Positions 1 to 63,088 of a DNA stretch of 64,000 nucleotides are shown piece by piece. The notes beneath the pieces are model-generated. The model saw only the letters and a program-made list of their open reading frames with translations, did no database searches and was not told the origin of the DNA. Position numbers and translations under genes: made by a program. The stretch covers positions 21,452,001-21,516,000 of the forward strand of contig OZ287756.1 in NCBI GenBank assembly GCA_965649765.1, written 5' to 3'. This stretch comes from Bispira polyomma. Taxonomy: Eukaryota. Each line of letters begins with the position of its first letter. The first letter of the stretch is position 1.

Positions 1-130
1 TGCTTTAATATTATTAAACTCTTTTAAGATGACAAAATACTTACTGCTTTGATCTTCTAAAGAAACTGGTATAAATACTGGGGTGTATGAGAGCATACAA
101 TGGGTCTTTTATTTATACTCAGGACTTAAC

Positions 131-1478
131 ATGGGAAAGACGAAAACAACTATTCACAGCATAGCTAAGGCGAAGAAACCAGCAACAAGACGAGCCAAAG
201 TACTGGCAGTAACGGAGGACACGGTTCAAAAGGTATCTAATTCTATTGACCACGCTTCGTTCACCAATACCCCTGCCATTGTTTCAACGAGTGTCCGCGT
301 TCTCCAACAGGAGATGAAAGCCAGTACTATGTCATTACCCACACTCGGTGAACCCACGACTTCACAATCGGGCTCTGAGGAGATGCTCTCCATACTAAGA
401 AGATTGAAGTCATCCAATATTTCATTATCTCAACGAATCGAACGAGTGGAAGCTCAGGCAGCCTCGAACGGGCCCTCATTGGTATCCCCACAAGTACACA
501 GTATTGAGGAACAACCACGTCTTCTTAAGTGCTGCTCACATTGCTCCATTACAATCTCAGTCTTCACTTTCTTCATTACACAGGCTGAATGGAGGTCAAA
601 CCTCGCAGTGGACAAGCCAACTCGGACTGGGGGGAACACAAGGCCTACCTACACAAGGTCTGATGCCACCAGTAACACACTCGGGGTTAAGCTCCTTTCT
701 CACTGCGCCGACACAACCACAGGGCATGAACTCACTTGAATACCAAAGGGATGGGATTGTTCCCAGTGTAGATACCTTAAGAGCAATGCCCAGTGTCCAG
801 TCAGCCGTCTCTCGCCAGCTAGCAGAGTATGAAGCACTGGCTCACAGACACCTTTTACAAGGTAAGGTGAATCCTAGAACTAAGTCGGGCCGGTTCAACA
901 GCACGGATGTCACAACTGTGGATGCTCAATTTCGGTGGCCCAATGAGGGATGGGTAGGGGGATCTGCGCAGAAACGCCCGACCTATGATGAATTGACCTT
1001 ACCGCAATGAGCGGCCGGACACATCTTGAACGCGCTTCAGCTTCAAGACAATGTTCTCATGCGCAGTATGATGCACCAACTAGTATTTGCATTGAGAGAT
1101 GCTGCCTTGCTCCCGTGGCCAGTCGTCAGGACAGGCTGGGCCCTCAATATGCAGGAAGTGGAGGAGGGTCGGCTGTCCTGGCAGGAGAATACACAGTGGG
1201 CGTTAAACAGATTAAATGCGTCACAACTCGCGATGGCAAACAACAGCCACCGTCATAACTTTAACACAAGCCAAGGGGTGAGCTCGAATGAGGGGAAGAT
1301 AATAATATGTAAACTATTTAACAATGGAAAGTGTTCTTATAAGTCAGATCATGGCAGTTACAAGCATAACTGCTGGCATTGCAGTAAGATATTAGGGAAG
1401 GAACAGAATCACCCAGAATTTAAATGCTACCGAGCAAATTCCAACAAACAAACTGAGAATGGTAATATTAATAAATAG
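131..1478 (+). pseudogene. Gag-like ORF1 of YR retrotransposon (one frameshift near 500-600, TGG>TGA at 1008-1010)
   Basis: ORFs 83-739, 504-1010 and 1026-1478 join into one protein homologous to 61935-60724(-). C-terminal CKLFNNGKC...HNCWHC...HPEFKC finger array. Confidence 0.8.
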
Positions 1479-1541
1479 GGGGTCATTCGGCCACCAAAAC
1501 CACAGCTAGTAAGTAGTAAGTTAGAAACATGTAAGGACAGA

Positions 1542-4268
1542 ATGAACAATCAGGTAGTTGTTAAGAAAGATGAATTAGCAGAGGCACAGCAGCAACTATG
1601 TGACGTTAAGTATAACACCTCACAAGTAAATGAACATGTAGAACATATAACTGATAAAATTATTGTAAAACCTATAATTCAAGAAAGCTGTATGCGTTAT
1701 AATGTGAATAGTATAGATGTAAAATCATGTAATGTCGTTAATGTTGAAGATGTTTCAGATAAAATTGTCAGACCAGCAGTCGAGAGTATGCATGTACAGC
1801 TTAATCCACCTGACAGGGGCGCTTACAAGGCAGTCAAGGGCTATAAGGTTCAGTATAACAGATCTGATAGCGCTAATGATCTGACATTGGTTAATGGCCA
1901 CACGAACAGCAGCAGAGAAAATGTTAAAGTAAAAGTTGATGTGACAAATTGGAAAATTATACAAAATTGGGGAAATACAGCACTTCCAATAGTGTATATT
2001 TCGAGCAACAAGGCACTCTTCTGTCAAGAATGGGATGCAAATGCTGGTGTTCATTGTTATAGGCCTATTGAATTTGTTCCTGAGGGTTTTCTCCAAATAA
2101 TACACTCATTTGAAGTTATAGTTGCATATAAGGCAGTGGAGAATGATACAAGTAAAGTGAATAGACCACTATCAGTGAAAGATAGGCTACAAGCCAAGAA
2201 TGCACAATTTTTTCATAAAAAAGATGTAATGTGTATGAGAAGATTTAATCTGGACTATACCAGTTACATGCTAGAGATAATTGATAGTCTGATAGAAAAG
2301 TGTAATGATAAAGTATGTGAACTGGACATTAAGGCTATTGACAAAATGACAGAAACGACTTTAATGAGCAGGAAGACGGCAGGGAACTGGACTGAGGAGA
2401 CCACAACAGGTAACACACGTTCGCCTTGTGAATTAGTCACAAATCCGTCTTCTTCTGAACAATTTAAGGAAATTATTATTACTGCAATTATTGAGCCTGG
2501 CAACAGGAATATCATTGACTGTAATGATCCTGGAAAAACCATAGGGTTCATAGCACTTTCACCCGCAAGATTTGCTTTCTGTGGGCCTGATAGACAGGCG
2601 ATACATATTCCATCAATTTCAGAAATTTTCAGAATAGCCAACATTATTAAGAGTACAGGTATGGCTAACTACAGACGGGCCAGAATACCAATCAGTTCTG
2701 GCCTGCATCTGGAAGCCTGGGAAAAATTACTTGAACACTACCCAGATCAACTGCTTTTGCAGTATATCAAATTCGGCTTCCCTCTGTCACTTGAAAACCC
2801 AGAGGGCATTGCTAACAATAAGGTACAAAACCATTTCTCAGCATTACAACATCCACAGGCTGTCATGCAGTACTTAGAAAAAGAAAAATCATTAGGGGCT
2901 ATGTTAGGGCCAGTAGAAGAAATTAAGGACTTACAGTATAATTGCTCAGCATTATTAACCACGCCTAAGGATATTACGAAGCGACGGGTAATACTAAACT
3001 TGTCCCATCCATATGGGGCCTCGTTAAACGACAATGTAACTAGGGACAAATTTGATGGAGTATCTTTCGCGCTAAGATTCCGCAGCATTGACAATATTAC
3101 GCAAGCGATCCGACAAACTGCGAACCCAGTATTATTCAAAATTGACGTTGTGGGCGCGTTTAGGAATTTAAGGGTGGATCCAGTCGATGCTGTAAAACTA
3201 GGAATATTTTGGAATAATAAATACTATCTTGATCCAGCTATTGCATTCGACTAGGTCCACGGCAGCGTGGCGTTTCAGCATTGCACGGACGCAATAACAT
3301 CTTATATAGGAAAGCAGGGCTTTAGAGTGTTTGGCTACATCGACGATTACATATGCGTTGCGTCAGGCAAACGCGCTCAAGCAGGGTTTGAAATATTGCA
3401 TGATTTAATGACTAGGCTCGGCTTACCCATGAATGCTGATAAACTTACCCCACCCACGACGAAACTAACATGCTTGGGCATAGATTTCGACGTTATAGAA
3501 GGTACAATCAGTATCCAACCTGAAAAACTAGCAGAAGTATATAATACTTGTGTAGAGATTTATGATAAAAGTTATATTTCCAAAACAAAATTTCAGTCCC
3601 TACTGGGACAACTTCTTTATATACACAAGTGTGTAGCTCCAGCTCGTATTTTTATTAATAGACTTTTAGCAGCTTTCAGAGGAAATGGGGCTAGTAAAAG
3701 GTTCAAGGTCACTACAGAAATGAAAGCTGACCTTCAGTGGTTTAAAAAATTCCTCCCAAAATTCAATGGCATTATATATATTCAACATACGATTATATCT
3801 TTCGCGAACGAACTACATGTCGATGCATGTCTCACAGGATTTGGGGGCGTTTGGAACGATGAAGTATATGCTACCCCCTTTTATGACATTTTCAATGGTG
3901 AGCTAACGATAGTACACTTGGAAATGCTCAATATTATTATCGCCTTGAGAATTTGGGCCGAAAAATGGAAACGTAAGAAGTTGAGCATTCACTGTGATAA
4001 TATGGCTGTGGTTCTGGTGGTCGATTCACAAAAAACTAAGGATACTTTTCTATCATTATGTTTAAGGAACATTTGGTTAATTACAGCAACTTATGACATA
4101 ACTCTTGAGATAAAACACATTCCTGGTAAAGATAATGTAATTGCTGATGCGTTATCCAGGATCTATTCAATAAAAAATCCTAATGAAGACATTTTACAAT
4201 CAATTAGAGACAATTATATATGGAAACCAGTACCTATCGAATTTTTTAACCTAAATTTATCAATTTAA
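1542..4268 (+). pseudogene. Pol (unknown N-terminal domain + reverse transcriptase + RNase H), premature TAG at 3252-3254
   Basis: FKIDV..AFRNL, AIAFD*VHGS (copy 2 has AIAFGWVHGS), YIDDY, CLGIDFD, HVDAC, IHCDN, ADALSR. The two ORFs are in the same frame. Confidence 0.92.
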
Positions 4269-4274
4269 TTTCAG

Positions 4275-5250
4275 GTGCCACTCCGTTCACTCAACAATTC
4301 ATGGACTCTGCCTGGACCCGTATGAATACAGCCTTAAGACCAAAAACAAATGCAGCATATGGGGGTCAATTTAAGACCTTTTTAGCTTTCCTTCAATTTT
4401 CAGGCATTTCGCACATTACTGTGCATGCCATTATAGCTTTCTTAGAATATCTGGTTCAAAACCAGTTGTCCCCAGGTGCAATTAAAAATTATATGGCTGC
4501 ACTAAGATTCACTGCAAACAAATATCACTGGGACTTATCCCCTTTCATACACAATTCTGTGGCACTTTTCTTGAGAAGTTTATCCCACAACTCCAACTTT
4601 AGGCCAAAACCTAAAGGAATTTTCACTATTCACCAACTATTGCAAATCTCAGTCACTTGTGAGATCTTAGATGATCCTGTCCTCTTTAGAGCAATTTTTC
4701 TTGTAGCCTTTTTTGGTTTCCTGCGGTTATCAAACTTGGCACTTCATGCCAGGTCAGCTTTTGACCCTTCCAGGCATTTCCTTAGGAGGGATGTGGTTTT
4801 TGGTCATCCAGGGGCTCACATCATCATTAAATGGGCAAAAAATTTGCAAAATAGAAGTGACACCCACATATTACAAATTCCACAATTAGAGAACAAGATT
4901 ATTTGCCCAGTTACTGCTTTAAAACACTGCTTCAATCTAGAACATTAAGGGGTGGAGACCCTCTCTTTGCCACCATTAGAAAACCACATGATACAATAGT
5001 GGACTCTCACGTCAGAGCAGCCTTGCAAAAAATTCTGCCACACATTGGATTACAATATAGTACACATGGCTTCCACACCTTTAGAAGGTCGGGAGCCACC
5101 TTTGCCTTCAATCACAACGTATCCCTTCAAAATATTATGTCACATGGCCTTTGGAGATCTTCAGCAGTATGGTCTTACTTACAAAAAACATCCCAGACTG
5201 CTTATGTCGTCCCCCTTATCTTTGCCTCTGCTATCCCTTCCGTTCTTTAG
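4275..5250 (+). pseudogene. Tyrosine recombinase/integrase (frameshift near 4920); probably a spliced exon starting at 4275
   Basis: Catalytic set R (FLRLSN), K (IKWAKN), HTFR, HGLW, Y (VWSY). Acceptor tttcag at 4269-4274. Confidence 0.9.
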
Positions 5251-5482
5251 TTTGGCTTGGGGCATTAAAATTTTACTTATCTTAAAGCAATTTTATGATA
5301 TGTTAATGTCAGTTGTAGAATATATATATATGTATGCTAACATGTAAAAAATAAACACTCAATCGAAATCTTTTATTACCTCTTCACCATCGCAATAAAT
5401 ATATCAGAGCTGGAGATCAAACTTGACCTTTCTCAACTCATGACCTTGTAGCTTAAAATCTTGTTTTCAACATTTGGGGACT

Positions 5483-5592
5483 GTGAATGTATACTCTCTA
5501 CAGATAAATCATTAAATGTACACATTCAACAAAATGGCCATTAAATGTACACAATCAACAGTTGGTGCCATGGAATGTATACATTCAACAGT
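5483..5592. repeat. Short degenerate tandem repeat (core aatgtacacattcaaca, about 4 units)
   Basis: Motif recurs at about 30-33 bp spacing. Confidence 0.6.
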
Positions 5593-6034: not shown

Positions 6035-7697
6035 GCCTGGGCTTCCTTTCAGCACAATCCGACGTCGACCGATTTGTAGGTGTCCGATTCGATCAGACGT
6101 TGGCCGATGTAGCATTCCTTTTATCCCATATCTTCTATGTAAAATAAAATAAAATATTTTTTTGTTTATATTTATTGAAAAATCTGACAGTCTGCCGACA
6201 TCTGACCCGATCTATTGCAAATATAATGAAAGGAAGCACTTGCACCACATATTGGTGGCGGTGTCGGTTTCTTCATCAGATCCTTCTTCAGACCACATAA
6301 AATAGAGTCTCCTGTCTATCAGTCCTTTGAAAACATGGTGGTGTCAATTGGGCTTCATGGCCGCTCACTGTTGCTTGCCTGTGTCTATCGCCCCCCAGGA
6401 TCATGTACCTGTAATTTTTTAGAAGAATTCATGTCTTTTGTTGGTTTCCTGTCATCTATTAACAGTTTGTATCATGTCTGTGGTGACTTTAACATCCATG
6501 TTGATGCACCAGTTAGTGACGGTCATAAATTTATGACCTTTCTTGATTCGTGTGATCTAAAACAGTCAGTTAGACAACTTACCCATCTGCATGGTCACAT
6601 TCTGGATCTATCTCCTAGTAATCAGGATACTATTGTGGATATCAAAGTATGCAATTTTATATCTGATTTTGCATTAGTCAAATGCACAATTGCCTCTCCT
6701 CGGCAGATGGCATATTCCAAATATAGTGCATTATAGGAGGTACCACCGTATAAACATGTCTGACCTCCACACTGATCTCAAGAATACTTCCTTCGTTAAA
6801 TCACCAGCCAATTCTGTAGCCAAACTTTATGAACAATACGCACATGACTTGGGTGATGTACTAGACAAGCATGCACCACTTGTATCTAGAATGTCAAAAA
6901 AAATTCTGTGCATTGGCTTTCCGATTCATACCGACGGGCAAAGTCTCTCAGGCACCAATATGAAAGAACTAGGCGAAGGGCCAAGAATCCACTTAATAGA
7001 AGTCGATTTCGTTGCCAGATTGCTCGGTGCATGTACTTGTTAACGAGGATAAGTTGGAGTATTACAGCAAACTTATCTCAGACAACAGTCACGACACTAG
7101 AAAGCTATGGCAGCTATTCTTAAGAAATTGCATTGGCTCCCTGTTGAACAGCGTTAAGTGTTTAAAAGAGCTACACTTGTTTATAAGTTTCTTCACACTA
7201 GTTTTCCAAAGTATTTTGCCCCATATCTTACAGTATTTCTTATAATACCAGATGCAGTCAGAGTGGTAATAATTTACTTGTAGTTCCAAAGTTCCACCCA
7301 TCTACTCAAAAGTCAGTTAAACAGTTTAGTCACAGCTTTGCTTTTGATGCTCCCATTGCTTGGAATGCTCTTCCTGCTGTGATTTGTGCGCTCCCCTCAC
7401 TAAGAAGCCACCTTAAAACCCACTTGTACACCAAGGCATACCCACCTTAGTCCCAATCATCCCCCGGTGTGCTCTGTGGTCCTCGACCCTTTTCTGTCCC
7501 TGGATATTGAAATTGGATTACTGTCTTTTGTGCTGTTGTACCTTGGAGTCCCCTTCGTTAAGGGGAGATTAAGCACTATAAAAGTCTAATTACAATTACA
7601 ATTGGTAGTATTGTGTAAGGAGCCAAAAAAATCAGCTGATGTTGGCCGATGTCGGCCGACGTCGGCCGACAAAAACATGCTAAAAGGAATCCCAGGC
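6035..7697. mobile_element. PIF/Harbinger-like MITE interrupted by an L2-like LINE
   Basis: TIRs GCCTGGGCTTCCTTTCAGCA / TGCTAAAAGGAATCCCAGGC, TAA target duplication at 6032-6034 and 7698-7700, subterminal gtcggccgac repeats. Confidence 0.75.
6257..7600 (+). mobile_element. L2/CR1-type LINE remnant (AP endonuclease, RT deleted, 3' end)
   Basis: GGGVGF, CVYRPPG, CGDFNIH, HGHILDL motifs; ends HLYTKAYPP*; (AATTAC)n tail; attggt at both 6251-6256 and 7601-7606. Confidence 0.85.
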
Positions 7698-8632
7698 TAA
7701 AAGAATGACCTTGCTTGTGATACAAGGCCTAGAAATATAAACTTACGCAATGGCTATTTACTTTAACACAGGCCTGATAAAAGTTACCACTTAAAACAAA
7801 AAACTACTACATGGGCGTCATGATCGACAATGCTGGATATATATAAGAAGAAGGGTGTTATATACACCAGGGTTTGAACCCCTTTAAGCTGATAAAAGGA
7901 GGGGAGATTTGGAATTTTTAACTTTTGGCCAAAGCAGTCAACTGTGTCAACCCAGTCAATGCGTCAAAACTACTGCACATTATTGTCAATATAATATTAA
8001 AATGTTTTTTTTTATTCAATTTAAGCATTAATGTCAGGGCGAAAGAATAGCCTAACATGATTATTCACTGTTGATACAAGTTAGCAATTGAGTCACAAGC
8101 AATAAATCGTTGTTGTTTTTTCGCCCAGCATATTTTTCGTATATTTTATAAAATTACAAATCTAAGGAATGCATTAGGAGTATAAGGAGCCCCTTAACCT
8201 TAATATTAGCAACAATATCTCAAGAGGGAGGATAAACAAATTTTAAGCAAAACACAACATTCAAGAAAGCTATCAAAATGAGTTATCTGCAACTTGAAAG
8301 CATAGGTTTGTGGAAAACCTACTCCACCCAGTACAAACACAAAATATATTAGCACCGAAATCACTGGCACTCGATGATCTCATTTCAAGAACCCATAACA
8401 CGCTCAGGTGGCGGGGCCCAACACATGCACGAGGAGGTCAACAAAAGCACCCGAGGATACAGATAACTCAAGACAATGCAATCCAGGATCCACGGTGTAC
8501 TGTCACACCAACCAATGTGTCTGTCCTCAACTGTGTCTACAACTACATTGAATAAGAGCTAAGTACTGTATGGAATACTCCCCCTGTGGGTTTGGGGAAG
8601 AAGAATAGGCGTAACCAATCCTCCAGCGTGTC

Positions 8633-9697
8633 ATGGCCAAAATGTATGCTGCACAAAAGGGAAAGTCCAGTGATAGAATAATAACTTTATTCTTTGGGAT
8701 TTTTAGTACTTTCCATGCATCTGGATATGTCATTGGAGATGTGGTGTCAAACACAGTGCTCCGTAATGCTCCACCAGAGAACTACACAGCACCGAGCCAG
8801 GATGTTATTGAAGACAACTGTGGAATGAATGACTGTCCATGGAATGTGGTCAACATCACTACACTGGATGAACCTTCAACTAGTGTGGTCTGGAGTCTGG
8901 TGGCTGTCTATGACATTTTTACGGTGTTATCTATACTTGTCAGCATTTTCCTACTTGATCCACTCCCAAAATACCTGCAAAAGAAACAAAAACCTGTCAA
9001 AGAAGATATTGGAACATTACTGTTATCTGTGGTAAGGCTCTTGAAATCACACAAAATGCTGCTCCTAATGCTATTCAATACTCATTCTGCCCTCTACACA
9101 GCTTTTAAAAATGCAGATTTCAACCGTTCCTGGGTAACCTGTTCCTTAGGTATCTGGATAGTGGGCCTAGTGAGTATACCACATAGTGTAATAGGTGCAA
9201 TCTCAGCATTTGGTACAGGTTTCATTTCCAAAGTGATAGGGCGTGTAATACCAATGGTCATATCCACAATCTTTGGCATTGTTTCCTTTGCATGGCTGGC
9301 CATCTGGACAATTAACAGTGAGGATACCTGGACATTTTTCACAGTAATCTCTGCTATGGCTTTACATGATGGGATCCTGGAACCAATCCTACAATCTATG
9401 CATGGAATAATGTTTCCAGATAATATTGAGGGTGCTTATGGTTGTTACAACTTTTTTTGGTGTTTGGCTGCAGCTATTACATATGCTTATAACTATTTTG
9501 TATGTACTGACATCAAGCTCTATATCCTCTTCATTAGCCTTACTTTAGGATCATTCAGCTTTGCCATTCTTGAGTGGGAATTAAAGAGAAACAAAGATAA
9601 ACAAGTGAATGCTGATTTGGATGTTAAGGTTATACATGAGGATCAAATGGGTGCAAATAATGAGGGGTGCACAGAGGAGAGATATACTAAGTTTTAA
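8633..9697 (+). CDS. UNC93-like multi-pass membrane protein (MFS-fold), lacking about 140 N-terminal aa in this window
   Basis: CGMNDCP lumenal loop, ADFNRSWVTCSLG and YAYNYFVCT motifs; collinear with the paralogue at 13449-14940(-). In-frame stops lie just upstream of 8633. Confidence 0.8.
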   Translation: MAKMYAAQKGKSSDRIITLFFGIFSTFHASGYVIGDVVSNTVLRNAPPENYTAPSQDVIEDNCGMNDCPWNVVNITTLDEPSTSVVWSLVAVYDIFTVLSILVSIFLLDPLPKYLQKKQKPVKEDIGTLLLSVVRLLKSHKMLLLMLFNTHSALYTAFKNADFNRSWVTCSLGIWIVGLVSIPHSVIGAISAFGTGFISKVIGRVIPMVISTIFGIVSFAWLAIWTINSEDTWTFFTVISAMALHDGILEPILQSMHGIMFPDNIEGAYGCYNFFWCLAAAITYAYNYFVCTDIKLYILFISLTLGSFSFAILEWELKRNKDKQVNADLDVKVIHEDQMGANNEGCTEERYTKF

Positions 9698-13448: not shown

Positions 13449-14940
13449 TCAATATTTTGTGTATTTACTTTCCTGAATATCATTTCCCTCATTGTCAATC
13501 CCTAATACAGCCATGTCCATACTGTCATTATCTATTTTATTCTCCAAGTTAGAGTTATCCTTTTGGTCATTCTTGGTAATATCCCATTCAAGCAGAAAAT
13601 AGCCCATGTAGCCCACTGTAATCGTACCATGCTGTATGTAGACTTTGATGTCGGTGCAGACAAAGTAGTTATAACCATATAATACTGTGGCTATAAGACA
13701 CCAGAAGAAATTATAACACCCACAAGAACCTTGTTCATTGCCTGGGTAGGCTATGCCATGTAGAGCTGTCATAATCGGCTCAAAGATACCACTGTGCAAT
13801 GCCATGCCAGATATCAACAGAAAGTACACCCAAGTGTCATATTTATTCACTGGCCATAAAGCAATACTTGTCATTGTCACTATGGCTATGGTTAAGGAGA
13901 ATGCCATCAGCGGGGCTCTTCCGGTATACCTTGCCAGCAAGCCTGTTGTGAAACCTAATACTGAGCATATGATACCACAGACCATGAAGAGCAGTCCTAC
14001 CATCCAGATACCTAAGCCACATGTTATCCAAGATCTGCTAAAGTCTGCATAGAGGAACACTGAATATGAAGAGGAGTACACATTCATCATGATCAGGAAC
14101 CAAATCCTTTGTGTCTTTACCAGTTTGATGACAGATAGGAGCAGTCCACATAGTTCTTGTAAAATTGGACCACTCTCCTGTTGAAGGTACTTTGGTATTG
14201 GATCAAGAAAAAGTAAACCAATAACAATAGACATGACACTGAATACTGCATACACGGCTAACAATGTCCAAACTACTTTTTCTGGTGGATCTTCAAAAGC
14301 AGTGATGTTAATCTCAACCCATGGGCAGTCATTCATCCCGCAATATTTCTCTATGTCTTCATCTGATGGCTCAGTGTGGTTCTCCGAAGAGACTGTGCTA
14401 TGGACTGTGTTTAATATAATGTCTCCAAATACATACCCTGACATAAGGAAGGTAGAAAATAACCCAAAGAATAAGGTAGCTACTTTGTCTACCAATTGAT
14501 TGGTTTACTTTGCATATTCTTTTGCCATTTCCATGGTATATGAACAATGTGCAATCCAGACTGGTGCTCCAAAAAGATCAACTAAGATGGAAGATGGAAT
14601 CATTAGTGCCCAGATACCAATTCCAATAGCTGCCAGCCACAGTAAGGAGGGTGTCAATGATATAATGATAGTCCATTTATAGCCACAAATCCAGATCATC
14701 AGTGGGGCAAAGAACAAAACTAGGCAGGGCAAATGTACCATAAATAACGCTTGTGCTAATTGTACCAACCCCATCCTCAGCATGTAGACTGGATTGAAGA
14801 GTAAGTATCCCATTATAGCCTATATTTGTTAGAAAAAAAAGTGTATCTAGCACTAAAATGTTTTTGATTATGTTTCCCTTTGTAATCTCGTGATTTAAGT
14901 TTTCACCTTGTGGTGAGAAAGAATTTTCTTTAAAACCCAT
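13449..14940 (-). pseudogene. UNC93-like gene, intronless CDS, with a +1 frameshift (about 14717-14720) and TAA at 14505-14507
   Basis: KNILVL...LQSSLHAEDGVG N-terminal UNC93 motif. Three ORFs join into a protein of about 495 aa. Acceptor tatacag|G directly precedes the ATG. Confidence 0.85.
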
Positions 14941-16945: not shown

Positions 16946-19900
16946 CTATGTGGTGACTATATCCCAATTTATATCTTGTAAAATTTGTTTCACTTCGTGG
17001 TCAGTTCCCTCAAATGATCCAGTAAGTATAACATTATATATTTCGAATTTTCTCTTGATAATATGTCTAAATTCTAGAAAAGCTATATCTTTTTTATTTG
17101 TCCTGCAGTGATTTATGTACCACTTACCATAAACTATGACAAAATTTACTATGACATTATCTGGTATTACTTTCCCTGTCAATCCAATGCCAAACAACAC
17201 TTCACAAATCGACAGTTTAATCCTAAGTTTTAAATTTAAGGCCTCTGTTAACAAACTTTCAACCAGCTCCCAAAATTGTTTGCTGTATGCACACAAGTAA
17301 ATATGATGCTCTAATGTGTCGATACAGGCACAAAAATTACAAAACGGGTTTTCTCTAATATTCCATTTATACAGATTATAGTTACAGTTTAAGGTTCTAT
17401 TAACGATCTTATACTGGAATGTTTGTAAATAGGTTTCCTTTATAGTATAATGTATTGCATTAAAAATACATTTCCAGGGAGCGACTTCTAAAGAAGGGAA
17501 TAAATCTATCCATGTGTCAATAGAAGTAGGTTCTTTTAATTTTCTACTAACTACTTTCCAGTATAGGGCTTTATTGCTCACTTTGCTAAAGCTCATCATT
17601 TTCCCTTTTATCCTTATACAAATATTGTGATACTGCTGCATACCCAGAGTAATTGTCTTTAACCTTTGTTTCCATGATTTTGGTATAGCGCTACACAAAA
17701 TATTATAATTGTATAAACTAATATTCCAGTTGAGTTGACTTTTTAGGTTTTGAAATTTTAGAAGATGTCCCTTATCATCTACAATATCTTTTATTGTTAT
17801 ATTCTTTGTATTGCTCTTTAATAATTTAAAAAGCTTCTTTTCTAGGGGTTTGCTGTCTGAACATATGAATTTGTTGTCAAAAATGTATTCATTAAATATT
17901 TCCTCCAATGTCTCTGGAGGTCTGCTGTTAATTACATGCCAGCATTCCAATACCTGTTTGTGAAAAACATTGCGGCCTTTATCACAGTAAGACAATGGTA
18001 ATTTATGTTTAATTAAATCTCTATCAATATTTAACTTATACCATGTTAATGACGCCCATTTGGGCATTTGAGTATCATTTGAAATTAATCTTTTAATCCA
18101 TTTTATTTTAGCACAAATATGAATACTAAAGATATCAGGCATTCGCAGCCCTCCTGAGCTGAAGTTAGATAAAATAGTTTCTTTCTTTATCTTAGCAGGT
18201 TTTTTGTCCCATAAAAAATTGAATAACATTTTATCTATTTTCTCTAGTAAATTACTTGGACAGTAGCACATTGACAAGATGTCACTAATCTGAGGTATTA
18301 CCAGAGTTTTTATAATCATCACCTTCAGATCTTTTCCATAGATTTCAATCTACTGTCAAAATTTAGTCTGGTCATTTCCACTTGGTCAAAGGAGAACCAT
18401 ACTCCTAATGTTTTAAAAGCTTCATGACTGGCATGAATCTTGCCAAGTTCTTTTGGGAGTTTTAACGGTTTTAATTTACATTTCCCTATAGGTACTACTG
18501 TTGTTTTTTCTAAATTTATTTTTAGACCAGAACATTTTTAAAAATTGTTCAATGATGAAACTGATTCTACTAGTGAAGTAATATTACTTAGAAATAAAGT
18601 TGTATCATCTGCCAGTTGGCATATTTTGTATTCCTCTTTACCCACGTTAATTCCACTGATTGCCTTATTATTTCGAATGTATATAGCCAAAATCTCTGCT
18701 ACTAAAAGGAAAAGTAGTGCTGAGATAGGACACCCTTGTCGTATTCCCCTAGTGATATTGAAATATTGTGAGAAGTAGCCATTATTGCAAACACAAGACT
18801 GGATATTCTTGTAAAGTATATTTGTCCACTTTAAGCATTTAGAAAGGAAAGACCATTCTACACTATCAAATGCTTTTTAAAAATCAACAAGTACTAAATA
18901 GCCCGGTAAGTTGCTTGTATCAGTGTAAGATATGATATCTTCTATAATTCTAACATTTTGTCCAATGTATCTATCTTTCAGATATCCAACTTGATCATTA
19001 TTAATCAATTTGGGCAGAACTTTTTGAAGTCTGTTAGATAGTGCCTTTGTTAATATTTTGTAATCTGTATTCAAAATACTAACAGGCCTCCAGTTACGTA
19101 GGTACCTTAAATCTTTACCTTCTTTTGGAATAAGTTTGAGAATACCTCTTCTTTGATCATCTGTCAGTGTGCCACTTTCAAGAGAGTAATTGAAGCTATT
19201 AAACAATATATCTTTAATATCAGGCCAAAAAAACTTACATAAATTAGTTGTGAACCCATCATTGCCAGGTGTTTTGTCATTAGATAATTGCTTTAATGCT
19301 GTTGAAATTTCTTCCATCATTAATACTTCATCACAAAATTGTTTCTCTAAATTATCCAATTTTGGGATATTTTGGTCAGTAAGAATGATTTTTTCAGTAT
19401 CATCTGTCTCCCTAATCTTTGACGAATAAAGATTTCGTAAAAAAGCTTCTGTTCCATCAAAATAACATCTGGCTCTGTAATTTCATCGCCATTAGATTTT
19501 ATTAGTTTCTTTATATATTTAATGTTATAATTTCTTTTTTCTAAATTGATGAAATATTTTGTATTCTTTTCCACCTCTTCTACCCACTGAGCTTTTGATC
19601 TGAGAATAATACTGTCTGTCTTTATTTTTTCTAATTTTTCCCACCTTGATTTGGTTTCATAATATTCATTCAATTTATCTGGGTTTTTATTTATCTCTTT
19701 TTCTAATGTTTCTAATTTTCCTAAAATTTCCTTTTCATTCTCCCTTGTTTGCCTTGACTTTTGTTTTGCAAATATAATTGTTTTCGTTCGTAATTGGCAT
19801 TTCACAAAGTCGCATAAAATATTTTTATTTTCCATTACTACATCTGTTTTAATAGCCTCAACCTCTCTCTTGATCATGTCAATGTAATCCTTTTCTTGGA

Positions 19901-55349: not shown

Positions 55350-56950
55350 TAAATGGTGTCTGGAAAGAGGAAGTATATGCCCTCCTTACTTTAACATTTA
55401 CAATCAAGCGTTGACAATTGTTCAGCTTGAGATGTTAAACATTATTCTCGTATTGCATGTCTGGGCGCCCAAATGGGCGCGTCAGCGTACTCTTTCACTG
55501 CGATAACTGGTCGTAGTTCTGGTTATGAACACTCAGAAAACTAGGGACACCTTTTTAGCCTTATGTCTAAGGACTATTTAGCTTCTTGCTGCCACTCGAG
55601 ACATAACTATATAAATTCAAAATATTCCAGGCAAACATAATATCATTGCATATGCTCTTTCCAGAATATATTTTGCTAAGCCAGCAAATGCTGAATTATT
55701 ACAAAACTTGTACAATCAGTATCGCTGGAACAAAGTCTCCATACAATATTTCAACCTGAAATTATCTATGCAATTTCAGACATAACCAGATCCACAAAAC
55801 CACTCATTCAATCTGTCTGCAACAGAATTTACACAGCTCTAAGACAACCTCGAAGACAACCACAGCATACAATAACTAATTCAAGACTTTCTTGGCTTTT
55901 CTGAATGTGGGAGGCCTACAACAAATTAATGTTGCTTCAGTTCTAGCTTTCCTGGAATTATTGGTACAAAATAACCTATCACCTTCAGTGTTTGGTAACT
56001 ATCTCTCCTCTTTTAAGTTCATGGCTTACAAATTACAGTGGGACATGGCTCCCTTCACTCATAATTGTTTTGCTTTGTTGACCAGGATTATAACCATTAA
56101 CCCTTTTCCGTCCTAAACCAAAAGGTTTATTTGATGTAACTCAGTTTACACAAATTTCACAGGCTTGTCAGATCTTACAGGATCCAGTATTATATAAAAG
56201 AATGTCCCTCTTCACATTTTTCAATTTTCTAAGGCTTCCAAACACAGCCTCTCATTCTGGAGCTTCTTTTGACCGTTCTGGGCATTTTCTTAGGAAGGGT
56301 ATAGTTTTTGTCCCACTAGGAGCTCATGTCATCTTAAAATGGGCAAAGAATTAGCAGAATAGAACTTGAACACACATTATACAAATTCTTTTGCCTCAAA
56401 ACCATCTTCTCTGCCCTGATAGGGCACTACTATAACTTATCTTTTCCAGGCCACTGGTCACACACTCACCACTGTTTGCAGCCAATGTATCTCAATTTCA
56501 ACCAATTGTCCAATCTCACATGAAGTTGGCTTTACAAAATTTGTTAGAACAGATAGGTATTCAATGTCAATCACACAGCTTTCATACTTTCAGAAGGTCA
56601 GGTGCTACATTCGCCTTCAAAAGAAACGTATCTTTGCAGAATTGTATCTCCAACAAACATCTCAGGCTGCTTCAATGGTACCTCTCACTTTTGCAACGGC
56701 TATCCCCTCTTCTTAGTTAGCCTTGGGGCTTAAAGTTTTATCATATATAATGTTAGCTTCTCTTATTTTATCTTTAAGCATCTTGAACTTCACCACTACT
56801 GGACTGTACATAGCAAGTCCCCACAGGGGATTGCTAGTTTAGTCCACACCACACATTATATCTAGCCTATAACTATAGCTAATACCTTAAAACCTTACCT
56901 AGTAAATGCTATGGCCTAATCCTTTCCTCTGTCCATCCACCTGGGGAGGG
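55350..56950 (+). mobile_element. YR retrotransposon copy 3, 5'-truncated (RNase H tail, YR, 3' region), heavily degraded
   Basis: GVWKEEVY, LEMLNII, HCDN, ALSRIY; YR HSFHTFRRSGATF; stop at 56714-56716. Confidence 0.88.
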
Positions 56951-57004
56951 AGGGGGGGGGGGCTTAATGCTTAAAAATTTATTTAAACATCACAAATTTT
57001 TACA

Positions 57005-60000
57005 GCCCCAAGCCAAACCTAGGAGGAGTGCGAGATGGCAGAGGCAAAGGTTAAAGGTACCACTGAGGCAGCTTGTGAAGTATTTTGTAAGTATGTCTAC
57101 ACAGCAGATGACCTCCACAGTCCGTGGGCCATAATGTTCTGGAGTGAGACGTTTTGGTTGAATACAAAAGTGGCTCCCGACCTTCTAAAGGCATGGAATC
57201 CGTGTGAGCTATGTTGAATGCCAATGTGTTGTAGAATTTTTTTTTTTGTAGAGCAGATCTTGCATGTGAATCAATAATTGTGTGATATGGTGGAATTTTT
57301 GATGCAAACAGTGGTGCCTTGTCCGAAATTTGTCTGGATGAAAGCAGTTTCTTGAGAGCTAAGACTGGGAAGATGTGAGAATTGTCCAATAATGGAATCT
57401 GAATTATATGAGTGTCAGTTCGATTTTGTAAATTTTTGGCCCATTTTAAGATCATATGAGCTCCTGGGTGACCAAAAATGACATTCTCTCCCAGGAAATG
57501 CCTGGTGTTGTCAAAGGCTGATTTTGAATGAGGTGCTATATTTGATAACCTCAAAAACCCAAAGAAGGTTACTAAAAAGATAGCCCTAAAGAGTAAAGGG
57601 TCATCCAGGATTTCACAAGCTCTAGATATGAGAATAAGCTGTTCTATGGTAAAAATGCCTTTGGGTTTCGGTCTGAAAGCCGAATTATGTGTAAGACTCC
57701 TAGTGAATAGTGAGACTGCATTGGGTGTAAAGGGAGTAAGATTCCAATTTAACTTAGATGCTACAAGTTTCAGAGCTGCTAGGTAGTTGTTAATTGCTCC
57801 TGGTGATAACTGGTTCTGCACCAGGTACTCCAAAAAAGCAATAACTGAGTGTACATTAATGGTAGCAATTCCTGTGAACTTAAGAAAAGCTAAGAATGTC
57901 TTAAATTGTGCATTGTATGCTGTAGTTGTCTTTGGTCTTAAAGCTAGGTCAATTCTGGCATTGGCTGAAGCCATCAGAGCTTGGCTGATGCATGTAGAGC
58001 CTAAAATTATATAGATACGTCCAAATTGAAGTATTCAATTGGTACTTGGTGCCATTTAAAATTACTGTCAATTTTATTTATAAGCTCTTGATCTGATGCC
58101 TTGTCTGAATACAATCTAGATAATGCATCTGCAACTACATTTTTCTTACCAGGTATATGTCTAATTTTAAGAGTAATGTCATAAGTAGCTGTTAGTAACC
58201 AGATGTTTCTTAAGCATAAGGCCAGGAAACAATCTCTGGTTTTTTGTGATTCGACAACCAGAACCACAGCCATATTGTCACAGTTGATCATTAGACTACT
58301 ATATCTCCACTTCTCAGCCCATACATGTAAAGCAATAATTATATTTAACATCTCCAGATGTACGATTGTCAATTTTCCGTCAAAAATGTCGTGAAACGGA
58401 GTGGCATAAACCTCGATTCCAAACGCCCCCAAAGCCTGTGATTCAAGCGTCTAAGTGCAGCTCGTCTGCATATGGTATGGCATCATGGTTAATAAAGTTT
58501 ATACCGTTGTAATGTTCTTAGAACGTTTTAAACCATAGCAGGTCATTTTTTATTTCACTAGTTACTTTAAACCGTTTATTTGCATGTCCAGCTCGAAATT
58601 CAGCCAATAGTCTGTTGACAAAGGTTCGGGCTGGGGTAACACATTTATGAATATATAGGAGCTTGCCTAATAATGATTGGAATTTGTTCTTAGATATATA
58701 CTGTTTGTGTAGGACCTCAATGCAAACGTCATATACTTCTTTTAACTTGTCTGTTTGTATACTTATAATTCCTTTAGTAATATTAAAGTCGATTCCCAGA
58801 CAAGTAAGCTTGTGCATTGGTGGAGTTAATTTATCTTGGTTCATTGGGAGGCCTAGCTCCTGTAGCAAAGTATGGAGCTTGTCAAAGCCTTCCATAGCTC
58901 TATCCTTCTGAGTAACGCAGACGTAATCATCTATGTATCCAAATACCTTAAAGCCCTGTTTCCACATATGAGCAGTGATTGTGTCCGTACACCGCTGAAA
59001 AGCCGCGCTTCCATGAACCCACCCGAATGCAATTGCAGGGTCCACATAGTACTCATTTTTCCAAGAAATTCCTAGCTTTATTGCGTCCACACGGTCAACC
59101 CTGGCCACGTCAATTTTGAACAAGGTGGCGTTTTCTGTATCCCGTATGGCTTGTGTGATGTCATCAATTGTCGGAAATTTTAATAGAAAAGACATGCCAT
59201 CGAATTCGTCCCTGTCGACGTTGTCATTAAGCGAGTTGCCATATGGATGGGACATGTTACAAAATTATTGCGTTTATTAATATCTTTGGGTCTAGTGAGA
59301 AGTGGCGAGCAATTGTAGTCTGAAGTTTTTACTTCCTTAACTGGACCTAACATGGCCCCTAGATCAGTTTCTTTTCTAAGATATTCCCCAACCTCATAGG
59401 GATACTGTAGAGCTGAGTAATGATTCTTTACCTTAACATTTTCTAATTCAGTAGGAGTCCTTAAACATAGAGGGAAACCAAATGTGATATATTGGAGTAA
59501 TAGCTTGTCAGGATAATCCTGAAGCATGTGCTGCCAAGCTTGTGTGTTCAGTCCAGAACTTAATGGTATTCTAGCTGATCTATAGTTTGGAACTCCTGTT
59601 TGTTTTATAATTTGAGCAGTTGTAATCATGTCTTCTACTGTTTTTATATGTATTGGCTGTTTATCTGGTCCTTGAAATTCAAAGTCAGTATCTGATAGTG
59701 CAATGAACCCTACAGTCTTATCTTTGTCATTAATGTCAGTGACCACCCTGTTGGTTGGTTCACTAGCCTTAACCATATAAGTCATTTGGGAGAAGAATTC
59801 CGAACACGCAGGGTGAGCATATTTTTCATCACAATAACTTACTATGGTTTTAGTAGTGTCAGAGCTACTATGTCCATTCTGTACAGCCTCGCCTGTTGGC
59901 TTTACATTTACATCAGTATTGACTATATTTACATCTTCACAATGTTCAATTAACTTGTCAATTACATTTTCTACAAACTGAGTATATGTTTTACCATTTG

Positions 60001-61935
60001 AATGTAGATACTTCATATCTCTTTGGTAAAAATAAAAATTATTACTGGCTTGCTTCTGTTGCTTAGCTGAAATATATTCAATGCCATCCATATTTACAAT
60101 TGGTATCTTGTGGTTTTTACTAATCAATGTTTCAAAGACATTAATAATATACAACATACTGTTAGGTTTAAAGTCCAGGAGAGTGTAGCATTGCCATCCA
60201 GTGACCTTATCAGTATAAGTATAATAAAAACCTTTTGCCAAATAATGAGGTTCTTCCATGTGAATGATTGGAAAATTTTTGCCTATAGCCATATCAGGTA
60301 AAGACCAATTGGTCACACTAATTTTTACTCTGATGGCCTCCCCATCAGTGTGGTCATTCTGTATGTGGCCTGTATGACTTTTGTCAGTGAAATTTTTATA
60401 TATCCCACGGCAGTTGAGGCTACACTCCCCACAGTCCAACTTGACCTTCTCTTGCACCCTGGTAGGTGGAAACATTTGCTGCTGACTCTGGAGAGACTCA
60501 ACATCACCATAAGTGTTCTCTGAAATGTTCTCATATATCACATTTGATAACAAATTGTTATTACAATTTAACCTTTTTTCATTAGTTCTCACAAACAAGT
60601 TATTTTTAAAACTTTCTTTTTTATACAATTAATGTTGTTTTTACTTGAAAAAATGTCATTAACTCTTAAATCTACAGTATTGACCAATGTTCCTTTTTGC
60701 TTAACTGGTTGTCGAATGTCTCCCTAGCTGCTTTTTACATTTTGACTGACAGATTGCTTACTTGAGTTTGCCTTAAAACATTCAAATTCAGGGTGACCAG
60801 ATTCTTTTCCTAAAACTTTGGCACAGTACCAGCATTGATGCTTATAATTTCCATGATCATTTTTGTCACTGCATTTACCATTGTTAAATAGCTTACATAT
60901 TGTTTTCTGTTCTGTGTCATTGGACGTACCCTGGTGATGGCTATTAACCATGGCTAACTGAGACACGCTCATTCGATTCAGCGCCCATTGCGTGTGATCT
61001 TGCCCCGTCAAGCGTCCCTCCTCAACTTCATGCATGTTTGACGCCCATGCCGTCCTCACCACGGGTCAAGGTAGCGACGAAGCGTCTTGAAGCGCGAATA
61101 CTATCTGGGTCATCATGTTCCTCATGGCTGTGTTGTCTGCAACAAGGAGTGCGTTCGAGATTTGTCCTGCCGCCCATTGTGGTAGCGACAGGTCATCATA
61201 GGCGGGCCGTTTACAAGAAGAAGTGGTGACATTCGTTGCTAAGCAGCCCTCGTTGGGCCAACGGTATCTTGGATCAACTGTGGCAACATCAGTCGAATTA
61301 AACCTGCCAGACTTAAGCCTCTAGTTCTGCTTACCTTGGGACAGTTCCCTCTGCGACTGACTCATAACTGACTCATAACTGGCTAAATGACGTGTAACTG
61401 CTGACTGCACGTCAGGCACGGAGCAAAGGGCCTCTAGGTTGGGCACAATACCATCTCGGTTGTATTCGTGGTGAGTGGGCCCCAGTAGTGGTTGTTGTGA
61501 GATTCCGGTTTCCAAAGGCGGAGTGTAACGTGGGAGAGGTAGGCTGTTGGCCGTGAAACTGCCCCGTCTGAAAGTTGTAGCACTGCTCATGAACTGATTA
61601 GAATTACTGGCCGAGTCGGTGACTGTAGCCCTTCTCGCTTCAACTTTCTCAAGCCTAGATTCTAATCTTTTCAGTATTTCTAACATCTCGTTAGGTGGAT
61701 TTACTGGTGGCTGTGAAATAATAGGTGGCTGTATCATTTGGGGATCTGCCTGGAACAGAGCAGCACTCGATGTCGAAGTTAATGGTTCATCAACCTCAGC
61801 GAGGTGGCTACGAAGAGCCCTAACAATATTATCAGTTACCTGTGAACCGTCTGTTCCACTTGTGGCTTTCAACACCTTGGTTTTACGGTTGGCTGCTTTC
61901 TTTGCCTGCAGAGGGGTTTTACTCATCTTACCCAT
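57005..61935 (-). mobile_element. YR retrotransposon copy 2 (gag 61935-60724, pol about 60723-58007, YR 58000-57019), inactivated
   Basis: Same gene order and motifs as copy 1; stops at 61321, 61066 and 57097, plus several frameshifts. Confidence 0.92.
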
Positions 61936-63088
61936 GGTTATAAACACACAAATCCAATAACACCTTCCTTATAATATGGTAAAAGATAAAATGTAATGTT
62001 TAAAATAATTCACTAACAACAAATCTTGTAAAAATCTCCATGTAAGTTAAAATAATTTTCACTTGTTCGAAATCAAATTCAATATGGCAGTATAATGCCA
62101 AGAAAAACCGGGAAATTTTAATTAATTCTGCAATGTGATTGGCCCTAGAATAGCTATGGTAAAATGAGGATAGCTATACCTAATTTTTAATTAAGGTGGT
62201 GTGTTATATTTAACGTGGACTGAGATAGCAGTCTCCTAAAGTAGACGTGCTTAGCACATTAGAAGTTTCAAAACCACCACCTCCCCTTTAACCACAACTA
62301 GTAGTGCACTTTCCATGAATGGGAGGATTTTTCTATAAAGTCTTCAGGGATATTTACATTACCAATTTTAACTGTTCATGCATTGTCACACTGGGCTGAC
62401 CGCTTACGCCGCCGGCCGTGTGGAGGGATTCTGTCTACTTATTCCCTTCCCTGGGCATAAAATTGGGGGACCATGGTGGAATAGGGGCCCTGAGAGGAAG
62501 GATTTACCTCTGCTAGGTGGTTGGTGTCCAAGGCCGGGGGTTTCAGCGGTGGTCAAGGTTTCACCATGCTGGAACATTAAAGGTTTCAACTCGGAATGTA
62601 AGGAATATTTGTGTAGCGAGTGTCACTTGAGGGCGCTTTATATTCATAAACTGATAATTGTCCACTTAAGATTGAAGTATTGAGTTGTAACATAGGGGCA
62701 ACCATTTACATATAGATCATTATGTGTTGTTTATGGCTAGTCCTTGCCAGTGAATATCAAAAGGGACAGCAACGTTGATTTAATGCTACATTCATGTGGC
62801 TTGTGCAGTCTGACAAATAGTAGCCTGGATAAGGCACAAATGATTCTGTTGGTCTTCATGCTGTAACAAAGGGTTCCTTTATAATTGGTCCCTTTACATA
62901 TGCCTTTTTACCTGTATCTTTTATTTGATTTTACATGTTTAAATTAGTGGATATTGCACTTCTGTTGTTGTATCACTTAATGACAGGGTGATTATTTATA
63001 ACATATTAACATACAGGCAAGGTGTATATGGGTAGACAGACACACTGGTGATAAAGCTATTATGATAAACAAAACATCAAATGAGCCA

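Follow-up and report, generated by a model that had tools for sequence, protein, structure and literature searches.

Probable readthrough of an in-frame UAG between gag and pol in a Ngaro-like retrotransposon clade, likely aided by stop context and a long-range helix

How is pol expressed from a retrotransposon whose gag ends in a stop codon directly ahead of it? The question is raised by a 64,000-nucleotide stretch of the Bispira polyomma genome (assembly GCA_965649765.1, contig OZ287756.1, positions 21,452,001 to 21,516,000, forward strand; "the window"), which carries two decayed copies of a Ngaro-like tyrosine recombinase (YR) retrotransposon. Both copies encode a zinc-finger gag, reverse transcriptase (RT)/RNase H and YR, and both are broken outside the gag-pol junction. 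A sequence-only reading of the window had suggested stop-codon readthrough of the type known from murine leukemia virus (MuLV). The features that matter for the junction are the following (coordinates within the window, strand in brackets).

127..5485 (+): copy 1, a decayed Ngaro-like YR retrotransposon, without the 5' A repeat and with a B1 repeat at its end
131..1478 (+): gag of copy 1, broken, delimited by its open reading frame (ORF) and the long gag ORFs of relatives
1473..1479 (+): gag stop context AAA-TAG-G of copy 1, a candidate leaky stop
1479..4268 (+): pol of copy 1, in the same frame as gag, with a variable linker, an unnamed conserved block, RT and RNase H
56973..62256 (-): copy 2, decayed, of another subfamily (cluster 14)

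Comparison of these copies with their relatives suggests that Gag-Pol is probably made by readthrough of the UAG in this clade, likely with help from the stop context and from a long-range helix. In copy 1, the gag TAG (1476-1478) is followed by 21 open codons, the first ATG being codon 22 (1542-1544), and the frame stays open for 591 codons, reaching the RT domain. Its lesions are stops at 1008-1010 (gag) and 3252-3254 (pol) and a change of frame in YR near 4948. The two copies are identical at 17 of the 21 positions from the TAG onwards, as had been read. In copy 2, the gag frame overlaps the pol-frame ORF (60628-59180, minus strand) across an A-rich run, also as described, and its open run measures 44 codons, close to the roughly 43 given before. 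Copy 1 is 94.9% identical over 5403 nt to a fuller copy, L065 (the same as L189 in the repeat analysis). Since both window copies are broken elsewhere, the junction had to be tested in other copies.

The 1.035-Gb assembly was searched with the C-terminus of gag. Among 6305 candidates, 150 were scored and 120 were analysed; the 30 left out were mostly tandem or segmental duplicates and matches with several stops. The 120 relatives fall into 20 clusters with between-cluster identities of 54-82%, and gag comprises 400-535 codons (counted from the first Met) in relatives with long gag ORFs, its C-terminal CCCH/CCHC-type zinc-finger region stopping about 10 codons short of the gag stop. The first in-frame stop lies 7-13 codons past the finger match in 113 of the 120 relatives, and is TAG in 108 (TAGG in 106) and TAA in 5. 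Judged by homologous place, with odd cases decided by eye, TAG is likewise found in 113 of 120 copies (in 108 it is the first stop in frame, in 5 a break lies upstream of it), the remainder carrying TAA (2), TGG (2), TTG (1), TAT (1) or a deletion (1). Three copies with a sense codon at this place (TGG in L082 and L105, TTG in L127) are all broken further downstream. Seventeen copies from 5 clusters are open for at least 850 codons past the stop; in every one of them the stop is TAG-G and pol follows in the gag frame behind this single UAG, as the sequence-only reading had anticipated for intact copies. Two further ORFs of 800+ codons begin elsewhere than at the TAG: in L092 a deletion removes the junction, and L137 has 99%-identical siblings that are in frame.

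The same reading expected that an AUG of pol would not be conserved, and this expectation is borne out: the commonest first ATG varies by cluster from codon 10 to codon 62, and is codon 68 in part of cluster 12. The linker was analysed in 20 copies (19 cluster representatives and an additional copy of cluster 12). Seven lineages (clusters 1, 12b, 13, 14, 18, 19 and 20, of which 13/14 and 19/20 are related pairs) have 55-76 stop-free codons ahead of the first ATG, with dinucleotide-shuffle P values of 0.0013-0.0047 each. In the 15 of 19 representatives with a stop-free gag frame, the other two frames contain 4-11 and 6-16 stops per 60 codons. Outside the proximal helix arm described below, the linker varies freely in length, and its amino acids are not conserved; to judge from its sequence, it behaves as a tether that would need only to stay open. 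Beyond it, a conserved block of about 120 amino acids precedes the RT N-terminal region (window about 1915-2300, alignment columns 220-345) in 6 of 6 aligned open pol ORFs, and has no Pfam match.

What, then, could make this stop leaky? Among 19 cluster representatives, chosen among TAG copies, TAG and A at -3 are present in all, G at +4 in 18, and C at +16 and A at +21 in all (the T of the stop is +1). A conserved UAG-GG context, as claimed earlier, is not found, as position +5 is A in 11, T in 5 and G in 3, leaving the +4 G as the only shared base; AAA-UAG-GUA occurs exactly in 5 of 19. UAG-G in frame with a downstream ORF, as in type III readthrough signals, is present in 106 of the 113 stops in position. 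The +4 G departs from the CAR-YYA that follows UAG in signals of the tobacco mosaic virus type (type I), which was not found. The look-alike CAA-CTA/CCA at +13..+21 reflects complementarity to Val/Leu codons, and a displaced CARYYA or an amino-acid motif at codons 4-6 was rejected as a candidate, being explained as the complement of distal codons. Positions +7..+12 are neither purine-rich nor conserved, at variance with the MuLV-type spacer that had been invoked. The proposed hairpin GGUC-AUUC-GGCC can form in copy 1 (z -1.7), where it overlaps the proximal arm of the long-range helix, but it is not a feature of the family. A local hairpin as the stimulator was also rejected: with folding without pseudoknots, no local fold was better than shuffles in 21 sequences with 60 shuffles each (mean z +0.46 for 90 nt and +0.12 for 150 nt), and no compact structure of the MuLV type was found.

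A partner scan revealed instead that the segment from +10 or +12 to +22 is complementary to the RNase H codons L-V-V-x that follow CDNMAVV, a median of 2,527 nt downstream. In the two window copies the arms are as follows.

1485..1505 (+): proximal arm of copy 1 (core +10 to +22, extending to about +30 in its subfamily)
4006..4026 (+): distal arm of copy 1, RNase H codons (CDNMAVV)-L-V-V-x-S
60705..60726 (-): gag TAG (60726-60724) and proximal arm (+10 to +22, 60717-60705) of copy 2
58249..58261 (-): distal arm of copy 2, 2.4 kb from its own proximal arm

The arms of copy 1 form 10 contiguous pairs and an 11-pair extension (duplex energy -37.8 kcal/mol), those of copy 2 13 consecutive Watson-Crick pairs (-23.8 kcal/mol). 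In 15 of 19 clusters no other place in the 7-kb locus pairs as well with the proximal arm as the RNase H site does; a control query from +60 landed on it in 1 of 19. The motif is present in 94 TAG copies, of which 3 were set aside because their anchor is degenerate; the remaining 91 copies, in 19 clusters, were aligned on the helix, cluster 13 being shifted by 3 nt for its insertion. In the core (+12..+22), 198 of 209 cluster cells are paired, against 171.7±3.5 when partners are permuted (maximum 187 in 20,000 permutations) and only 22-115 when the register is slid; the mean energy of own pairs is -23.8 compared with -17.0±0.9 for permuted partners. Pair types are exchanged at +12 (C-G 10/U-A 9), +17 (A-U 11/U-A 6/C-G 1/G-C 1), +20 (C-G 11/U-A 6) and +22 (G-C 14/A-U 3). 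They change at synonymous positions and also with the amino acid that follows the valines, the +12 pair being C-G with Gly/Arg and U-A with Glu/Asp/Asn/Lys. On the gag tree, both arms change together on the same branch at least 19 times, against 5.3±1.9 (maximum 13; 0 of 50,000 reached the observed number) under a simple null of independent, branch-length-weighted placement. Hence covariation downstream of the UAG, which the sequence-only reading had proposed to look for, is present in the form of joint changes of two distant arms.

Pairing falls off at +9 and +8 (2/19 and 4/19), and the helix, with a predicted length of 11-14 bp, begins 6-8 nt past the stop. The 5' edge of stable pairing is fixed at +10 to +12 across the 19 clusters, and the 3-nt insertion of cluster 13 is matched by extra pairs. 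Mean inter-arm pairing probability is 0.77-0.98 at +11..+23 and 0.21 at +2. The 10 G-U cells exceed the 5 A-C cells, which weakly favours the sense strand. From these comparisons we regard the helix as very probably real. As a computational model, it would provide the 3' structure that type III signals have about 7-12 nt past the stop.

The window copies and their relatives fit the published definition of Ngaro-like elements (order DIRS), namely split direct repeats and no methyltransferase, unlike DIRS/PAT (PMC4157794, PMC6681497, PMC3783388). RT/RNase H and a YR downstream on the same strand are indicated by Pfam RVT_1, RVT_3 and Phage_int_SAM_1, with Phage_integrase below the cut-off. Three open pol ORFs gave no methyltransferase, protease or DDE integrase match in Pfam (E<=0.05), and pol ends about 35 amino acids past the RNase H match. 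Direct repeats in the order A1...B1, A2, B2 (A about 190-230 nt, B 150-240 nt) were found in 10 of 12 extended copies, partially in 1 and not in 1, while the window copies have lost parts of them; inverted repeats were seen in none of 4 copies examined. In L181-L192, the sequence of 0.5-0.9 kb between A2 and B2 is common to copies. The order gag, RT/RNase H, YR is likewise that of Ngaro-like elements. In contrast to described Ngaro elements, gag and pol here share one frame across UAG-G, a covarying long-range helix is present, YR would be reached by predicted splicing, and A2 and B2 are 0.5-0.9 kb apart.

The predicted splice concerns the following features of copy 1 (a slash marks the joint).

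859..867 (+): phase-1 splice donor AAG/GTAAG in gag, the intron starting at 862
4266..4275 (+): pol stop, then the T-rich acceptor TTTCAG/G before YR
4275..5250 (+): YR ORF (PF02899/PF13495/PF00589), with the frame change near 4948

A phase-1 donor lies 593-617 nt ahead of the gag stop in 22 of 22 long-gag copies and is the only donor common to all. The longest YR frame opens at acceptor+2 in 12 of the 17 fully open copies, matching phase 1; in the other five, pol ends early, the acceptor is changed or YR is broken. The Gag-YR splice suggested earlier is thus phase-compatible as far as the sequences tell, with a phase-1 donor and a YR frame that opens two bases into the exon. Three contig sets of unspecified kind from one study, compared with L182 (3 runs) and L187 (2 runs), gave no predicted donor/acceptor joint among the matches listed, and none of 40 scored genomic matches (of 105 candidates for spliced copies) ended at the donor; neither result speaks for or against the splice.

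These features lead to the following model. Most ribosomes would stop at the UAG and release Gag, while a few would continue into Gag-Pol, stimulated by the A-rich 5' side, the +4 G and the helix closed with RNase H codons about 2.5 kb downstream. The helix would form in unspliced RNA and lie at the mRNA entry channel of the ribosome when the UAG is in the A site; a near-cognate tRNA could thereby compete with release, raising readthrough. The spliced RNA (donor 862, acceptor 4274) would lose the stop and both arms and encode Gag(N)-YR. That readthrough as such occurs is likely; that the helix stimulates it is more likely than not. The MuLV analogy of the sequence-only reading holds for the in-frame UAG and the open linker but not for the stimulator, which appears as a distant helix rather than a local hairpin or pseudoknot. 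If the model is correct, Pol would come only from full-length, unspliced RNA with an intact pol, and the passage of every readthrough ribosome would open the distal arm, a built-in negative feedback.

More distant relatives extend the view of the gag end. A first metagenome scan with a gag alignment gave 196 pattern matches, none of which was confirmed. A scan with pol gave 13 loci at 36-45% identity; the junction is readable in 8, and in all 8 an upstream ORF is in frame with pol across a single UGA. This ORF matches the gag profile in 7 of 8, two of them weakly. The first Met follows at codons 99 and 114 in L193 and L198, that is, after 98 and 113 stop-free codons. Among these relatives (L193-L202), UGA-C occurs in 4 of 8. 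The B. polyomma genome was also searched with one gag of the UGA relatives; 150 of 7058 candidates were scored and 60 (L206-L265) chosen for variety. In these sister families, pol lies in the +1 frame behind GTT/CTT-stop in 26 copies and in the -1 frame with A_AAA_AAC and a hairpin (-15 to -23 kcal/mol) in 7, while 18 have other arrangements, mostly -1 overlaps, and 9 are unclassed. Analogy with the known heptamer form suggests that the overlaps may be frameshift signals, and the GUU-stop +1 site may represent a new class of shifty stop. Some -1 overlaps have no canonical slippery site (for example GTC-TAG in L252, L253 and L262 and CTT-TAA in L257 and L261). A helix at the RNase H site was not found in 19 copies of the +1/-1 families; L261 has a partner 53 nt beyond the RNase H motif. 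Across the lineage, then, the end of gag has the appearance of a recoding site, and this speaks for a fusion rather than for separate initiation. The UAG clade is monophyletic (support 0.987) in an RT-RNase H tree that was built of relatives without family names and includes 9 of its clusters. A sister protein group (P0001-P0100) mostly has Q-V-V at the distal site in place of the L-V-V of the UAG clade; if the helix is shared with that group, its proximal arm should differ to match.

Several observations weigh against readthrough or against a role of the helix in it. In 11 of the 20 linker copies no more than 9-34 codons separate the stop from the first ATG, which makes the stop-free test uninformative there. 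Clusters 9 and 15 meet a stop before any ATG (TAA at codon 4 in both cluster-9 copies; a stop at codon 4 is found in 5 of 108 TAG copies), and in the same clusters the helix is weak (partner ranks 4 and 12). Linker substitutions are spread over codon positions, without selection at the amino-acid level. The RNase H helix is present in 0 of 8 UGA relatives, and hence is unneeded for the in-frame arrangement. In addition, both arms lie within the predicted Gag-YR intron, at distances of about 620 nt (donor) and 250 nt (acceptor) from its ends, and the helix could serve splicing by shortening or masking this 3.4-kb intron, or act in packaging or reverse transcription, with any readthrough due to the stop context alone. 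Such a role, which the in-frame stop kept by the UGA relatives without a helix would also suit, is possible, although we think it clearly the less likely one: a pairing edge fixed at +10 to +12 in 19 clusters, cluster 13 included, while the rest of the linker varies, argues against it. It is not mutually exclusive with readthrough. Further caution comes from Candida Tca2, in which gag-UGA-pol is in frame with a predicted pseudoknot; according to PMC2194720, its local sequence gave no readthrough in yeast, a promoter was found at the junction, and remote elements were proposed.

The Tca2 promoter (PMC2194720) is a precedent for initiation of Pol at the first downstream AUG, be it from a junction promoter, by internal entry or by termination-reinitiation, and every first AUG in the clade does lie upstream of the first conserved pol block. 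Reinitiation may also use a non-AUG codon directly after the stop. We consider initiation of this kind unlikely, as it leaves unexplained the 55-76 stop-free codons in seven lineages and those in L193 and L198, the fixed frame, the variable AUG position and the near absence of UAA. Splicing from the phase-1 gag donor to a YAG at +20..+22, giving Gag(N)-Pol, or to TAG/G itself, is somewhat more doubtful still. In its favour, 14 of 19 clusters have an in-phase YAG whose last base is +22 or +25, and TAG/G fits YAG/G; however, this AG is complementary to the Leu codon and becomes AA where Leu is TTG (clusters 9, 15 and 17), and cluster 17, whose pol is fully open, lacks any in-phase YAG upstream of +76. 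Moreover, the 12 nt upstream of either site contain 0-5 T, as opposed to the T-rich YR acceptors, TAG/G, being phase 0, does not fit the frame of the one donor that is conserved, and the stop of the UGA relatives offers no AG. Finally, A-to-I editing could convert the UAG to a Trp codon, as at the amber/W site of hepatitis delta, with the duplex recruiting ADAR. The duplex adjoins the UAG and TGG makes up 2 of the 4 sense-codon variants, but A-to-G is also the commonest ordinary change, the A of the stop lies outside the conserved helix, where the pairing probability is low, and the route is closed to UGA relatives; editing is thus highly improbable.

Readthrough aided by a helix has parallels among viruses. 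In Carnation Italian ringspot virus (CIRV, a tombusvirus), readthrough requires pairing of proximal and distal readthrough elements (PRTE-DRTE) over about 3.5 kb (PMC3234231). For barley yellow dwarf virus a distal element 700-750 nt away has been suggested, and the luteovirus context is AAA-UAG-GUA (PMC3159437). The same source states that readthrough stems begin 7-12 nt past the stop and that adenines at -1/-2 help. The present family shares with CIRV and with luteovirus coat protein readthrough the UAG-G (type III) stop and a proximal element that pairs with a distal one. Unlike these, it has no conserved local stem-loop, the long-range helix of 11-14 bp itself being the stem, and its distal arm is RNase H coding sequence of a chromosomal retroelement. 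A simple stem of 10-12 bp, 7-12 nt past the stop and with compensatory changes, recalls alphaviruses and furoviruses, which have UGA-C and loops of 100-150 nt (PMC3159437), whereas in the present family the stop is UAG-G and the loop spans about 2,500 nt. The succession gag-stop-pol in one frame in a retroelement is shared with MuLV and Tca2; the purine-rich 8-nt spacer and compact pseudoknot of MuLV are not seen.

A keyword search of the DIRS/Ngaro literature, covering the available text of PMC8547959, PMC7192593, PMC6681497, PMC3783388, PMC4157794, PMC12440569 and PMC5009743 and of the preprints 10.1101/2021.08.05.455354, 10.1101/2021.04.08.439009 and 10.1101/2022.06.16.496473, found no readthrough or frameshift signal for these elements; the founding Ngaro papers, Repbase and supplements are outside its scope, and Goodwin and Poulter 2004, Poulter and Butler 2015 and the Repbase reports may mention in-frame stops. 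Within the same limits, no long-range readthrough helix in a retrotransposon was found: stimulators acting over kilobases are established in plant RNA viruses, with none in a retroelement, and expression of the downstream ORF in retrotransposons of the order DIRS is not addressed. The family would offer a full scheme, with the stop giving Gag, readthrough Pol and a splice the recombinase. We lean slightly towards a wider proposal: UAG readthrough, turned on by a helix that reaches over 2.5 kb to the element's own RNase H codons, would set the Gag:Pol ratio of this retrotransposon, and the end of gag in Ngaro-like elements would be a recoding hotspot, so far unrecognised, at which UAG readthrough, UGA readthrough, -1 and +1 frameshifting have replaced one another. 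The 19 natural proximal/distal pairs constitute a compensatory allele set for the effect on termination of a plain helix at the entry channel. The family could also serve as a model for cases such as Tca2, in which reporters with local sequence gave no readthrough and a contribution of remote elements is suspected; short reporters of the junction would here yield a false negative.

The window contains other sequences as well. A third, more distant RNase H-YR remnant (55355-56388, +), 64% identical to L065, lies tail-to-tail with copy 2. Two LINE-like (long interspersed nuclear element) pieces at 6230-7043 (+) and 16946-18349 (-) have a zf-RVT match below the cut-off and motifs that, by eye, we take to be of the endonuclease type. 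Two facing, uninterrupted ORFs at 8615-9697 (+) and 13449-14504 (-) match MFS_1 transporters.

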